A stretch of 64,000 nt of DNA from a virus. The notes under the pieces are model-generated. The model did not search any database, had not been told where the DNA came from, and saw only the letters and a program-made list of their open reading frames with translations. The DNA lies in IMG/VR virus record IMGVR_UViG_3300043399_000524, positions 32,001 to 96,000 of that record. One strand, written 5' to 3'. Of the stretch, positions 32,754-39,170 are shown one piece after another. The stretch's first letter is position 1, and the number at the start of each line of letters is the position of its first letter. The position numbers and the translations under genes are program-made.

Positions 32754-33314
32754 ATGGCGGCGGATATAATGATTGATATTGAAAGTTTGAACACAACACC
32801 TGATTGTGTTATTCTATCTATCGGCGCGGTTAGATTTGATCCTCGAGGCAACGGTGTTGTTGAACGATTAGAACTTAAACCTACAGTCGAGGATCAAACT
32901 GAAATATATAATAGGAGTATTAACGATGATACAATCAGATGGTGGTCAGAACAAAATCCTGCTGCCCTTGAAGAAGCATTCAGCGAAGAAGGTAGAATCC
33001 CATTTGCCGAATGTATGGAGATCCTATACAAGTTTTGTTGGAATCGCCGTGCTGTGTGGAGTAATGGTGCCCCCTTCGATTTGGTCGTTATGGAACATGC
33101 TTGGAGACAAACAAGCGATAAACCTAATCCCATCCCCTGGCCTTTCTGGACAATGCGAGACACAAGAACACTGTGGGAAATCGCAGGAGTCAAACTCAAA
33201 GACGGAGGACACGTTACAAGTCACAAGGCTGTAGAAGATGCTGAACGACAAGCCATCGTTGTTCAACAAGCATACATGAAATTAATGAAAGCAGGATTGG
33301 CAGAATCACGATGA
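32754..33314 (+). CDS. stand-alone DEDD 3'-5' exonuclease
   Basis: IMIDIESL (ExoI), NGAPFDL (ExoII), RDTRT, HKAVEDA (ExoIII). Confidence 0.85.
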   Translation: MAADIMIDIESLNTTPDCVILSIGAVRFDPRGNGVVERLELKPTVEDQTEIYNRSINDDTIRWWSEQNPAALEEAFSEEGRIPFAECMEILYKFCWNRRAVWSNGAPFDLVVMEHAWRQTSDKPNPIPWPFWTMRDTRTLWEIAGVKLKDGGHVTSHKAVEDAERQAIVVQQAYMKLMKAGLAESR

Positions 33315-33517
33315 ATGTCGAAAGAGAAAACACTTGGAGAACATTGCAAGGTCTTAAACCTATACAATCTTGGAAATGTAGACTTGGATGGCATCGTTGG
33401 ACTAATTATGAAATTCACGATAGGTCACATGATTTTATGGGACCAGTTGCAAGATGCCATTGTGCTGATTGCGGATTACCTAGAATAGAGCCTCCCTACA
33501 CAAAGAGTAAAAAATGA
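33311..33517 (+). CDS. small Cys/His protein
   Basis: CRLGWHRW...CHCADC. Confidence 0.6.
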   Translation: MNVERENTWRTLQGLKPIQSWKCRLGWHRWTNYEIHDRSHDFMGPVARCHCADCGLPRIEPPYTKSKK

Positions 33518-34086
33518 AACTAGATGCTGATATTGACATTGACTTTGGTGACAGAGATAAGTTGTTGAAACTTATTGCTCATACATCTGCGGCTATGCGT
33601 AATGTTAAACCCATGCGTAAACATAACACGGGTGTCTATGTTACGGACATTCCGTATGATTCAGTAAATGACATGGCTAGTATTGATTACACCGAGGCTG
33701 AAAAACGTGGTTATTTTAAACTAGACTTGTTAAATGTTCATGTTTACGAGCAAGTACGTGATGAACAGCATTTAGTTGAATTGATGCAAGAACCAGACTG
33801 GTCTAAATTAAATGATAAAGAATTTGTTGAAAAACTGATTCACTTAGCGAATCATTATAATTCTATACAAAAAATGCCTGAACCCATTGATAGTATCCCT
33901 AGACTAGCAATGTTCTTAGCCGCTATTCGTCCAGCTAAAAAGCATTTGATTGGATTACCCTGGAAAGAAGTCGCAAAGACTATATGGGATAAAGGTGATG
34001 ATGGGTACAGTTTTAAGCGTTCGCATGCCGTTGCTTACGCACATTTGGTAGTAGTTCATATGAATCTACTTACGGCATCCTCTTAA
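33514..34086 (+). CDS. miniature C-family (DnaE-like) polymerase catalytic fragment
   Basis: DIDIDF, KHNTGVYV, GYFKLDLL, LAAIRP, YSFKRSHAVAY, collinear with DnaE. Confidence 0.8.
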   Translation: MKLDADIDIDFGDRDKLLKLIAHTSAAMRNVKPMRKHNTGVYVTDIPYDSVNDMASIDYTEAEKRGYFKLDLLNVHVYEQVRDEQHLVELMQEPDWSKLNDKEFVEKLIHLANHYNSIQKMPEPIDSIPRLAMFLAAIRPAKKHLIGLPWKEVAKTIWDKGDDGYSFKRSHAVAYAHLVVVHMNLLTASS

Positions 34087-34450
34087 CTAACGTAATGCTC
34101 TTGCGTTTGGTCCTACGCTTGTTTAGTTCACTGATACTACATATAGGACCATGAATAATAGTCAGACTTTTATTGTTAAAAGTCCTTAAATAGGGCTTGA
34201 AAATACTCCATTCATCTTTCAGGAATAGGTTTATGGGGATAAGTCTATTACTTTCCCACCACCAAATATCTCCTAATTCTAGGAATTTTTCTTTAATTAG
34301 AGGGTCTACTATGGCCCCATAATCGTATATTGTAGTGACAACATCATCCCTATTCTGTACTATACCCACGTAATCTTGGTTTGAGTGCGAACATACTGTT
34401 ATGAACGGGTGATTTTCACTTAATTTTTTAAAAAATTCGTTGTGTATCAT
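34070..34450 (-). CDS. hypothetical protein
   Basis: Minus-strand late box at 34470-34478 precedes ATG 34450. Confidence 0.65.
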   Translation of the reverse strand: MIHNEFFKKLSENHPFITVCSHSNQDYVGIVQNRDDVVTTIYDYGAIVDPLIKEKFLELGDIWWWESNRLIPINLFLKDEWSIFKPYLRTFNNKSLTIIHGPICSISELNKRRTKRKSITLVKRMP

Positions 34451-35343: not shown

Positions 35344-36321
35344 ATGTTTGATATTCTGTCTTTAATTCCAGGCAAGAAAAAACTTACCCACGGTGGCTGG
35401 CATAGCTTTAATGCTATCTGCTGTCACCATCGTGGGCACACTGCTGACAAACGAGGTCGCGGTGGTATTAAGTTTGACGGACAAACAAATTGGTCATATC
35501 ACTGCTTTAATTGTAACTTCAAAACAGGCTTTGTGTTGGGTAGAAGCATTAGTAGAAATACGAGACAATTATTGTCTTGGTGCGGTGTAGATGAATCGCA
35601 AATTGGCAAGTGGAGTTTAGAAAGTTTACAACAAAAAGATTTCTTGGATTTCACACTGCCCAAGAAAAAAGAAAAGAAGATAAAATTCAAAGACCATCAA
35701 TTGCCCGAAAATGCTGTGTTGATTGATGAAAATAACCCATCGCACAAAATATATATAGACTATCTCAGGGCCAGAGGCATAAGTAATACTGAATATCCTT
35801 TCATGGTTACTACTGATGACGTTGGTCGAATGGGTAACCGCATCATTATACCATACACTTATAAAAATAAGATTGTAGGACATACAAGTAGATTCTTAGA
35901 TAATAAAATACCCAAATACATTAACGAACAACAGCAAGGTTATGTGTTTGGTTATGATTTTCAATTACCCGATCAAAGTGTTACTATATTGGTCGAAGGT
36001 ATCTTTGACGCATTGAGTTTAGGTTGTTGTGCATTGACACACAATTCAATCAATGAAGGTCAAGCAGAATTACTAGCACAATTAAATAGACAGATTATTT
36101 TTGTCCCAGACCGAGACAAATCAGGACTTGAAACTTGTGAGAGAGCTATTCAATTAGGTTATAGTGTCAGCATCCCACATTGGGATAAAGACATAAAAGA
36201 TGTAAATGATGCCGTTGTAAGATATGGTAGACTACCAACTTTACTAAGTATATTAGAGTCTGCTACAATGAGCAAAATTAAAATAGAATTGAGGAAGAAA
36301 CAAATTGAAAAAGGACTATGA
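35344..36321 (+). CDS. DNA primase (T4 gp61/DnaG-like)
   Basis: CCHH...HCFNC Zn domain, RIIIP, LVEGIFDAL and PDRD TOPRIM, KDVND. Confidence 0.88.
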   Translation: MFDILSLIPGKKKLTHGGWHSFNAICCHHRGHTADKRGRGGIKFDGQTNWSYHCFNCNFKTGFVLGRSISRNTRQLLSWCGVDESQIGKWSLESLQQKDFLDFTLPKKKEKKIKFKDHQLPENAVLIDENNPSHKIYIDYLRARGISNTEYPFMVTTDDVGRMGNRIIIPYTYKNKIVGHTSRFLDNKIPKYINEQQQGYVFGYDFQLPDQSVTILVEGIFDALSLGCCALTHNSINEGQAELLAQLNRQIIFVPDRDKSGLETCERAIQLGYSVSIPHWDKDIKDVNDAVVRYGRLPTLLSILESATMSKIKIELRKKQIEKGL

Positions 36322-37756
36322 AGATAATAGTTACCCAGTTGAGAAGCAAAAATATTTTTTACGAATGATGTTAACTAACGCAGAGTTGTTTACCCGTGTT
36401 ACTAACATCTATAATGCAATCAATTTTGATAAATCAATCAGACCTGTTGCTGAGTTTATCAAACACCACGCTGACGAATACAAGATACTACCTGAGTTTG
36501 AACAAGTAGAAGCCGTTACAGGGATTAAACTTGATCCTATTCAAAACTTAAATCAAGGACATTATGATTGGTTTTTGGAACAGTTTGAAAAATTTACTAA
36601 ACGACAAGAACTAGAACGTGCGATTTTAAAGAGTGCTGACTTGCTTGAAAAAGGTGAATATGATCCTGTTGAAAAATTAATCAAAGATGCGGTACAAATA
36701 AGTCTACAAAAAGACATGGGTATGGATTACTTTGCTGATCCACGTGGTCGGTTGTTAGCATTGAAATCTAATAATGGTCAAGTCAGTACAGGTTGGCCTA
36801 GCATGGACAAGAAACTATATGGTGGTTTTAACCGCGGTGAACTGCAAATCTTTGCAGGAGGCTCAGGTTCTGGTAAGAGTTTGTTCATGCAAAACTTAGC
36901 AGTTAATTGGACTAGTATGGGACTGAACGGAGTATATATCACACTAGAACTTAGTGAAGGCTTGTGTTCTATGCGTATTGACTCCATGACCACTGAAACA
37001 TCTAGTCGTGAAATTTTCAAATCAATTGATGATATTGAAATGAAAATTAAAATGATGAGTAAGAAGTATGGTAAGTTCCGTGTCAAATATATGCCGGCAC
37101 AAAGTAATGTCAACGATATCAGAGCATATTGTAAAGAACTACAGATCCAAACAGGTATGAATATTGACTTTTTGTGTATTGACTATTTGGACTTATTGAT
37201 GCCAGTATCTGCAAAAGTCAGTCCGAGTGATTTGTTTGTTAAAGACAAATATGTTGCAGAAGAAGTGCGTAACTTAGCAAAAGAGTTAAATGTATTATTA
37301 GTAACAGCATCGCAGTTGAATCGTAGTGCTGTAGAGGAGATTGAATTTGACCACAGTCATATTAGTGGCGGTATTAGTAAAATCAATACTGCGGACAATG
37401 TATTTGGAATCTTTACATCCAGGTCTATGCGTGAGCGCGGGCAGTATCAATTGCAATTGATGAAAACTCGTAGTAGTAGTGGTGTAGGACAAAAGATTGA
37501 ACTTGAATTTAATGTAGAAACATTAAGGATTACCGATCCTGATCCTGAAGGTTACGGGGAACAACAATCTAAGTTTAAACCTAGTCCCAGCCCCAATGAC
37601 ATTATGAATAGGTTAAAGCCCCAATCTACAATAGTTTCTACTGAACCTATAGTTGACCAGAATACAGGAGAAGTCTTGGAACCGTCAAACAAGAAGGTTG
37701 TTGTGGACGTTCAGGGATCAAAACTCAAGACTTTATTGAATAGTTTAAAGAAATAA
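36305..37756 (+). CDS. replicative helicase (T4 gp41/DnaB-like)
   Basis: GGSGSGKS, ITLEL, IDYLDL, ASQLNR, KTRS. Confidence 0.93.
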   Translation: MKKDYEDNSYPVEKQKYFLRMMLTNAELFTRVTNIYNAINFDKSIRPVAEFIKHHADEYKILPEFEQVEAVTGIKLDPIQNLNQGHYDWFLEQFEKFTKRQELERAILKSADLLEKGEYDPVEKLIKDAVQISLQKDMGMDYFADPRGRLLALKSNNGQVSTGWPSMDKKLYGGFNRGELQIFAGGSGSGKSLFMQNLAVNWTSMGLNGVYITLELSEGLCSMRIDSMTTETSSREIFKSIDDIEMKIKMMSKKYGKFRVKYMPAQSNVNDIRAYCKELQIQTGMNIDFLCIDYLDLLMPVSAKVSPSDLFVKDKYVAEEVRNLAKELNVLLVTASQLNRSAVEEIEFDHSHISGGISKINTADNVFGIFTSRSMRERGQYQLQLMKTRSSSGVGQKIELEFNVETLRITDPDPEGYGEQQSKFKPSPSPNDIMNRLKPQSTIVSTEPIVDQNTGEVLEPSNKKVVVDVQGSKLKTLLNSLKK

Positions 37757-37783: not shown

Positions 37784-38038
37784 ATGCAAAAACAAACTCG
37801 CAGTCTTTTAGAGGAATTAGAGGCCATTGGTAATAATCGTGATACCGCTCACATTATTGAGAGCAGGGGTCACAACATTATTACTAGCGCCATCAATTTA
37901 ATTGAAATGATTAATAAATACTATTCTCCTGATCAGGCTGAGATTTTAGAAAGAAAATTATTGAGTGCCATTAAAAGCAAGGATCAATCTAGATTTTCTA
38001 AGTCTATAAAAAAGAATAGTAAAAATGAACCCATCTGA
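37784..38038 (+). CDS. hypothetical protein
   Basis: CTAAATA at 37770-37776. Confidence 0.65.
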   Translation: MQKQTRSLLEELEAIGNNRDTAHIIESRGHNIITSAINLIEMINKYYSPDQAEILERKLLSAIKSKDQSRFSKSIKKNSKNEPI

Positions 38039-39170
38039 TGAACTATCATTGCTAAAATCTAAGATTGAAGAATTAAGTCTTTTTGAAGGTAAAGGTCATT
38101 TAGACCATCCTGAGGATTTGATATTTTTAGATGGAACTCAGGGCGCTAATCATGCTATACAGGCATCAGTGGCCACAGTTAATAATCCACAAACAGTTAC
38201 TATCAAATGGGATGGATATCCTGCATTAATTTTTGGTCGTGGAACTAATGGTAAGTTCACTATAATGGACAAACACATGTTCAATAAAAAAGATTTATCA
38301 GGAAGACAAGTCTTTAGTCCAGAACAGTTTGTTCAGTATGACCGAGCACGTGGAGTAGACCGCACTGGATTACATCAAATAATTAACGAAATATGGCCTG
38401 GTCTAGAAAAGTCAGACCGTAGCAAAGGGTACTATTGGGGTGACCTACTATTCAGTCAGCCACTGCAAGACCAAAACGGTATGTATAAGTTTAGAGCCAA
38501 TCCCAATGGTATCACATATACCGTAGATACAGATAGTGAAGTAGGGCAGTTATTTAAAGGAAAGCAAGCGGGAATAGTTGTTCATCAATTTATTCCTGCT
38601 ACAGCAGTGACCACTGACGAGGCAACTCCTTTAGATGGCACTATAGGTAGTTTAAAAAATAATAGCAATGTTGCTATTGTTCCTGCCAAGATGCCTATAA
38701 CTCCTAAACTAAAGTTGAATAACAGTTTAGTCAAAAAAGCACAAGCTGCTATTGCTAAGTACGGCAAAGATGTGGATCAGATGCTAAATACTGCTCCACA
38801 GGCAGCATCTGCCTTTCGTACTATGTTTACTACCTACATCAATAAAAAGATTGTTGCAGGAGATTTGAACAATTTAGTAGATGGTTTTATGGAATTCTTC
38901 AATAGCCGTCCAATGACCGAAACTATGCGTCAAAAGTTAACACAACATTTACAAGCTAACAAAGCAGGACTAATAGGGGCATTCACCATTTGGGCTGCAC
39001 TATATCAATTAAAAATGTCTATTGTTGACCAATTAAACAGAGCAGCAGAGGCTAGCCCCGTTAAGGGTTATTTACAAGACGGCACACAAACTCAAGAAGG
39101 TTTTGTCAGTCAAGGGTTAAAATTCGTTGATAGAATGGGTTTTTCACGCCAAAATCTTGCAGGCCGATAG
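38025..39170 (+). CDS. conserved phage protein with KWDG motif (DUF6267-like)
   Basis: HLDHPEDL, TIKWDGYPA, EGFV...KFVDR. Confidence 0.6.
   Translation: MNPSDELSLLKSKIEELSLFEGKGHLDHPEDLIFLDGTQGANHAIQASVATVNNPQTVTIKWDGYPALIFGRGTNGKFTIMDKHMFNKKDLSGRQVFSPEQFVQYDRARGVDRTGLHQIINEIWPGLEKSDRSKGYYWGDLLFSQPLQDQNGMYKFRANPNGITYTVDTDSEVGQLFKGKQAGIVVHQFIPATAVTTDEATPLDGTIGSLKNNSNVAIVPAKMPITPKLKLNNSLVKKAQAAIAKYGKDVDQMLNTAPQAASAFRTMFTTYINKKIVAGDLNNLVDGFMEFFNSRPMTETMRQKLTQHLQANKAGLIGAFTIWAALYQLKMSIVDQLNRAAEASPVKGYLQDGTQTQEGFVSQGLKFVDRMGFSRQNLAGR

Follow-up and report, generated by a model that had tools for sequence, protein, structure and literature searches.

The closest described relative of the system discussed here is the split minimal alpha subunit of DNA polymerase III (Pol III) reported for group 2.2 jumbo phages by Iyer, Anantharaman, Krishnan, Burroughs, and Aravind (2021, Viruses 13:63; PMC7824862). 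In that description, the enzyme consists of two small proteins encoded by distant genes, an N-terminal half that binds the nucleoside triphosphate and a C-terminal half that binds Mg2+ and the template; it occurs together with a family B polymerase, in the absence of other Pol III domains, and has homologues in PA5oct, RaK2-like phages, and Atu_ph07. The authors suggest that the split enzyme cooperates with the family B enzyme in the synthesis of one strand or in repair, and propose it as a model for an ancestral form of the bacterial replicase. A comparable gene is found in a 64,000-nucleotide (nt) stretch of viral DNA (the window), which covers bases 32001-96000 of the 139,307-bp IMG/VR virus record IMGVR_UViG_3300043399_000524. 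An open reading frame (ORF) on its + strand, 33514..34086, encodes a 190-residue protein that is probably the C-terminal, Mg2+- and template-binding half (C half) of a split minimal Pol III alpha. There is no essential difference between the two systems, and the protein encoded in the window is an orthologue in an uncultured freshwater phage. The split enzyme is therefore already known from sequence analysis, and several GenBank records annotate its halves as DNA polymerase III alpha. Details that may go beyond that description are the fixed split point at EF[LI]K-stop, rare natural fusions of 375 to 376 amino acids (aa), a ratio of nonsynonymous to synonymous substitution rates (dN/dS) of 0.16 in both halves, the conservation of the steric-gate histidine, and the conserved convergent gene of the phrog_11637 family. 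The window adds only another orthologue.

Among cellular enzymes, bacterial DnaE (about 1160 aa; PF07733 and associated domains) is homologous to the phage pair in the palm core and part of the fingers, with D401/D403/D555, D405, K553, GRGS, R639, and K758/S759/H760 kept in the same order. Unlike DnaE, the phage enzyme comprises 358 aa in two chains, is not the main replicase of its genome, and lacks the PHP domain, the thumb (about residues 433-509), a finger segment (about 642-738), the beta-clamp motif, and the HhH, OB, and tau-binding domains. Family C polymerases encoded by two distant genes are also found in cyanobacteria, where the DnaE-n and DnaE-c halves carry the parts of a split intein and are spliced into one full-length chain (PMC3919608). 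In the phage proteins, by contrast, there is no room for an intein, and the cut lies inside the palm active site. The Bacillus pair of DnaE and PolC offers a functional analogy only: it has a small or auxiliary family C enzyme beside a main replicase, and a gene that adjoins those for primase and helicase is a shared trait. The main replicase here belongs to family B, and the comparison is one of analogy and not of membership.

The contig that contains the window has a CheckV completeness of about 39%, and its complete or near-complete relatives measure 335 to 361 kb, with direct terminal repeats in one of them; the window is thus a fragment of an uncultured freshwater jumbo (giant) phage. Public sequencing runs that hold the stretch carry the label freshwater metagenome and may represent the source sample; no RNA data are listed among them. 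A megablast search of the locus against phage genomes returned zero matches, as nucleotide similarity to the relatives is too low. Counts given below for 80 loci refer to 80 related loci, many of which are broken by contig ends.

The translation of the ORF opens with MKLDADIDIDF and contains the motifs KHNTGVYV (residues 36-43), GYFKLDLL (66-73), LAAIRP (134-139), and YSFKRSHAVAY (164-174). In the reference DnaE of Escherichia coli (from NC_000913.3), GRGS starts at residue 361, PDFDVDF at 400, KHAGGVV at 510, KFDFLGL at 553, ALFRPG at 636, and YGFNKSH at 754. The resulting correspondence is D6 to D401, D8 to D403, D10 to D405, H37 to H511, K69 to K553, D71 to D555, R139 to R639, K168 to K758, S170 to S759, and H171 to H760, and FKRSHAVAY of the C half aligns with the finger helix FNKSHSAAY. 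A preliminary description of the window, made from its letters alone, had noted an ORF that begins near DIDIDF and carries DnaE motifs in DnaE order; both the coordinates and the mapping to E. coli agree with it. It had further stated that all three catalytic aspartates are kept. The three metal-binding aspartates of family C (D401, D403, and D555), which are absolutely conserved across the family (PMC3919608), are indeed present as D6, D8, and D71. In an alignment of 54 diverse full-length homologues, some with only about 32% identity to the protein of the window (alignment A1), the residues D6, D8, H37, K69, D71, R139, and P140 are invariant, and at least 90% of the sequences retain D10, G40, Y42, K168, and H171.

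A Pfam search assigns no family to the C half, and a single-sequence phmmer search against PDB gives matches at chance level only (E about 1), so that profile and fold comparisons are needed. In the PHROG collection, the protein belongs to phrog_11778 ("DNA polymerase," 197 positions), with an E value of 9.5e-60 over 185 of its 190 residues, and it also weakly matches full-length DnaE families. It is 47% identical to the homologue in PA5oct and 45% identical to that in Atu_ph07, and 386 relatives were retrieved in a search of 1.84 billion cluster representatives. In PDB, the matches of the A1 profile (E = 1e-4) are confined to Pol III alpha chains, and the aligned segments keep one order in both sequences: profile positions 54-140 align with E. 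coli 538-641 and positions 151-178 with 739-767. The AlphaFold2 model built from A1 has a mean predicted local distance difference test score (pLDDT) of 95.3 and a predicted template modeling score of 0.88. In a Foldseek search, the top matches of this model are all family C polymerases (E about 4e-3, probability 0.98-1.00). With VIA-align, the top 14 matches are DnaE or PolC entries (Z 6.2-9.7, root mean square deviation 3.6-4.2, 182-187 of 190 residues), the best being 3e0d with Z 9.7 and 187 aligned residues; the next unrelated chain reaches only Z 3.6. Profile and model thus both place the protein in family C, along the lines that the preliminary description had proposed for checking it.

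The model spans residues 397-779 of E. coli DnaE and stops at the equivalent of about 779. Its 190 residues thus cover a DnaE stretch of 383. The thumb and the finger segment are missing; the DxD strand is separated from the equivalent of H511 by only about 25 residues. At least 7996 protein clusters (90% identity) match the C half, with lengths from 104 to 333 aa; among the matches listed (120), the lengths are 187-203 aa and the identities to the C half 77-92%.

The N-terminal half (N half) was found by a PF07733 search of the whole contig. It is a protein of 168 aa encoded on the + strand, 44 kb downstream of the C half and outside the window (G000:C1:109435-109941 = L001:1237-1743, which would be window position 77435-77941), and it scores 37.9 bits against PF07733, for which the cut-off is 23.9. 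Its C-terminal sequence, ...VWGVGRGSSVASF...DLSIAEFLK-stop, includes GVGRGSS; the GRGS residues G136-R137-G138-S139 align with E. coli 361-364 and are invariant in 34 sequences. Residues 126-167 align with E. coli 351-392, and a weak match links residues 8-50 with 238-280. In DnaE numbering, the N half ends 3 to 4 residues before the start of the C half, and the split point lies within the loop that leads from the GRGS helix region to the strand that bears the catalytic aspartates. All 80 viral-contig homologues of the N half are 166 to 169 aa long and end in EF[LI]K-stop.

These data modify two claims of the preliminary description. It had listed the PHP domain, the GRGS segment, most of the thumb and fingers, HhH, and OB as missing; PHP, thumb, HhH, and OB are absent, but GRGS is present in the phage, in a separate gene outside the window. 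It had also considered the ORF as one subunit of a multi-gene split Pol III. This reading is supported, with the 168-aa N half as the other piece, but the result is a two-gene minimal core and not a full Pol III in pieces. A search of the contig with phrog_405, a full-length DnaE profile, detected nothing beyond the two pieces. The same profile, applied to three relatives (100%, 95%, and 76% complete), likewise revealed nothing outside the pieces and no PHP, thumb, HhH, or OB; both pieces were matched in two of these relatives and the N half only in the 100%-complete one. A full-length gene at this locus in relatives, which the preliminary description had named as a possible objection, was therefore not found in the complete relatives with this profile.

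No intein family of Pfam matches either half. An intein-mediated split was rejected: the N half ends in EFLK-stop, the C half starts 5 residues before D6, and Pfam inteins are absent. A 126-aa ORF two genes downstream of the N half (L001:2091-2471 = G000:C1:110289-110669, also outside the window) has, by eye, a sequence pattern similar to that of a GroES/gp31-type co-chaperonin; it has no Pfam match at E 0.1.

Several observations connect the two halves. By tblastn, 96 phage records contain the C half and 95 the N half, so that about 95 jumbo-phage genomes have both. The tallies by genus differ by a single Klebsiella record, which a 109.5-kb Klebsiella record among the C-half matches may explain. 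The hosts match those of PA5oct-like phages, phages of the RaK2/121Q/GAP32/CBB type, Atu_ph07, XacN1, SCTP-2, and similar jumbo phages. Both halves are also encoded in 5 of 5 large related metagenomic contigs, spaced by 35 to 44 kb, and in PA5oct they lie 43.6 kb apart.

Three proteins encoded on separate contigs (P0178, P0271, and P0272; locus L008:1066-2193) are natural fusions of the two halves. These mini-DnaE proteins are 375 to 376 aa long, are 78 to 81% identical to one another, and contain a linker of about 10 residues (…EFIKDNKEGIYNIADFDID…); the PF07733 match continues across their N/C junction. Their nearest relatives are stand-alone C halves, with 51 to 59% identity, which hints that the fused forms may be secondary.

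Both halves are under purifying selection. For the C half, pairwise dN/dS has a median of 0.159 (120 pairs, 0.1 < dS < 1.5), and the N half likewise has 0.159 (239 pairs); the homologues thus show none of the relaxed selection that the preliminary description had raised as a possible objection. It had also called for co-folding. In complex prediction, the N and C halves reach an ipSAE of 0.90, compared with 0.00 for the best control; 58 of 80 solved complexes but only 2 of 110 mismatched pairs attained this mark. At least 96% of contacts recur between runs, and the pLDDT of the partner is 89 or higher. In the predicted arrangement, residues 3-12 of the C half (the aspartate strand) pack against residues 133-142 of the N half (the GRGS loop).

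The conserved set, comprising GRGS, the aspartate triad with D405, K553, R639, and K758/S759/H760, matches a functional family C active site, and the pair is therefore read as a heterodimer with a single center that uses deoxynucleoside triphosphates (dNTPs). In this reading, which we consider probable, the ORF at 33514-34086 encodes the C half of a split minimal Pol III alpha, and the two halves form a noncovalent pair that acts as an auxiliary polymerase. The homology, the split, the partner gene, the co-occurrence, the purifying selection, the residue conservation, and the natural fusions are shown here; the docking of the halves is a prediction, and that the pair is catalytically active, that it acts on DNA, and what it does for the phage are inferences. 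The N half (about 238-393 of E. coli DnaE) would form the beginning of the Pol-beta-like palm, with its triphosphate-binding GRGS loop. The C half (about 397-779) would add the strand that bears two catalytic aspartates, the third-aspartate strand with its lysine and aspartate, and the finger helix that carries K758/S759/H760. Joined noncovalently, without an intein, the proteins would rebuild one active site in a heterodimer of 358 aa that has neither PHP, thumb, and clamp-binding motif nor HhH, OB, and tau-binding domains.

In DnaE, H760 serves as the steric gate that excludes ribonucleotides (PMC8485763), and the conservation of this histidine favors dNTPs as substrates. As it lacks the thumb, proofreading, and clamp contacts, the enzyme would be distributive and, unless helped, error-prone. 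The pair thus most likely represents a distributive, nonproofreading DNA polymerase that would function beside the T4-type family B replicase. Short-patch roles fit best, for instance the extension or hand-off of primers, the filling of gaps, or the bypass of lesions. An active site made of two separately encoded small proteins, without thumb, proofreading, or clamp contacts, would define the minimum size of a family C polymerase. Its presence also prompts one to ask why giant phages of a very large clade, with at least 7996 clusters for the C half alone, retain a second polymerase in addition to a full T4-type replisome.

Several points weigh against this interpretation. The N-half profile alone reaches DnaE in PDB only weakly (E = 0.4), although the Pfam cut-off was passed, so the identity of this half is carried by its Pfam match. 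The predicted docking may reflect memory of solved DnaE structures, as the halves come from a protein family with solved single-chain structures; the score shows likeness and not binding. The enzyme has neither a thumb nor any known DNA-clamping or processivity element, so that templated synthesis may need helpers or may not be its activity. Its fingers lack about 97 residues (E. coli 642-738), which may include some that contact the incoming dNTP. T4-type replisomes operate with one polymerase, and a second one is therefore not evidently needed. Finally, a literature search found no biochemical or genetic data on any member of the split enzyme, only the in silico description of 2021.

The preliminary description had pointed out that the rest of the replisome is of the T4 type, which normally includes a family B polymerase. 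Such a polymerase is encoded at the end of the same contig, in an 894-aa open frame (G000:C1:137645+) with a PF00136 match of 112.7 bits; the family B polymerases of the relatives have 912 to 918 aa. The same text had recommended a search of the full genome for both; the search of the contig yielded the GRGS-bearing half and the family B enzyme. In the window, the C half is followed by a T4-type Toprim DNA primase (35344..36321, + strand; phrog_47, E = 9.2e-39; PF13155) and a DnaB/gp41-like replicative helicase (36305..37756, + strand; phrog_19, E = 6.2e-65; PF03796, E = 4e-20). The C half, a small convergent gene, a structural protein, the primase, and the helicase form a conserved block, in which the last four accompany the C half in 78, 67, 62, and 54 of the 80 loci, respectively; the block is also found in PA5oct, Atu_ph07, and GAP32.

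The small convergent gene encodes a member of phrog_11637 (E = 3.9e-31) of about 126 aa, counted from an internal ATG (34070..34450, - strand, within a frame that stays open to 34492). It overlaps the C half by 17 nt at the 3' ends, and convergence with a 3' overlap of 14 to 17 nt is seen here as well as in PA5oct, Atu_ph07, and GAP32. The protein is 34 to 36% identical to its Atu_ph07 and GAP32 counterparts, and its AlphaFold2 model (pLDDT 88) shows a small beta-barrel with helices. No PDB structure matched it convincingly in a wide fold search, where the best Z was 4.1 and small beta-barrels scored near Z 3, and a search of a protein atlas gave no usable match. The sequence contains a WWWESNR motif and a basic tail, KRRxKRRSITLVKR.

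A bolder proposal, which we regard as unlikely but worth stating, is that the 358-aa two-chain core is the smallest active family C polymerase and a true second replisome polymerase of T4-related jumbo phages, which might, for example, extend primase products before handing them to the family B enzyme. In that case, the phrog_11637 protein might replace the thumb as a DNA-binding or tethering subunit.

The alternative that fares best would make the reconstituted core a nucleotidyltransferase with another job, such as template-independent tailing of DNA or RNA ends or the synthesis of a small nucleotide product. This would suit an enzyme without thumb, clamp-binding, HhH, or OB elements in a phage that already has a complete family B replicase, and the Pol-beta-like fold is well known to support many nonpolymerase chemistries. 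It is nevertheless improbable: the DnaE-specific finger helix is kept, including the steric-gate histidine, all 190 residues superpose on the palm and fingers of polymerases and not on minimal nucleotidyltransferases, and the gene lies within the primase-helicase block in every lineage examined.

Slightly less credible still is a dedicated partnership with the upstream exonuclease that the preliminary description had noted, which would make the latter a proofreading subunit that replaces epsilon or PHP. The exonuclease itself is as that description had it: a stand-alone DEDD 3'-5' enzyme of 186 aa (32754..33314, + strand; Rv2179c-like or DexA-like; PF16473, E = 1.3e-31; phrog_255), two genes upstream with one small gene between. 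That gene is a Cys/His-rich ORF of 68 aa (33311..33517, + strand), the start of which overlaps the exonuclease stop as ATGA (33311-33314) and the stop of which overlaps the C-half start in the same way (33514-33517). The partnership would give the mini-DnaE, which has no proofreading domain of its own, an exonuclease that is ATGA-coupled to the C half through this one ORF and found upstream of the C half in 47 of the 80 loci. However, the exonuclease accompanies none of the loci with 58 to 62% C-half identity and is absent from the upstream 3 to 4 kb in more distant relatives; the PA5oct gene directly upstream of the C half is unrelated to it (the GAP32 and Atu_ph07 neighbors were not compared). 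The 492 phage records that contain its family include those of lambdoid, Yua-like, and T4-like phages ("exonuclease A") without a mini-DnaE, and Pfam groups it with 3'-5' exoribonucleases. As the linkage is confined to closer relatives and the family is so widespread, the exonuclease is an independent module located here in one sublineage, and not a fixed partner.

Less probable than either of these is a catalytically inert pair that serves as a scaffold or decoy, for instance by disturbing the host Pol III holoenzyme or by organizing the phage replisome. The extreme reduction and the lack of any reported activity for a member of the family would fit such a role. However, the aspartate triad, K553, GRGS, and the steric-gate histidine vary little or not at all, even among diverse homologues with as little as about 32% identity to the protein of the window, which would be unexpected in a pseudoenzyme, and the elements through which DnaE contacts host proteins (PHP/epsilon, the beta-clamp motif, and the tau-binding C-terminal domain) are all absent. 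The remaining possibility, a decaying fragment of a former full-length dnaE, can appeal to the partial coverage of DnaE and the missing Pfam match but has next to no likelihood and was rejected, given at least 7996 matching clusters, a median dN/dS of 0.16, the fixed split point, the synteny kept from PA5oct to Atu_ph07, and the lack of a full-length gene in complete relatives. The ATGA overlaps bear out the clean coupled start noted in the preliminary description.

The product of the 68-aa ORF contains the zinc-ribbon-like pattern CRLGWHRW...CHCADCG; Pfam and PHROG searches with it found no match. As a homologue lies nearby in only 5 of the 80 loci, this ORF is a variable insert. Upstream of the exonuclease, the segment 28943-32751 (+ strand) contains at least 9 small, often overlapping ORFs of 72 to 138 aa, the products of which share a hydrophobic end (FLLRWA, YSLRWL, FLLKWT, AMLRWK, FTLRWS, FMLRWL, and FLLKFQ). 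The arrangement resembles that of small paralogous genes repeated in tandem. Downstream of the helicase, a DUF6267 protein (38025-39170, + strand; PF19782, E = 4.1e-39) carries the sequence TIKWDG, similar to the adenylation motif KxDG found in ATP-dependent ligases, and it may be a ligase-like nucleotidyltransferase.

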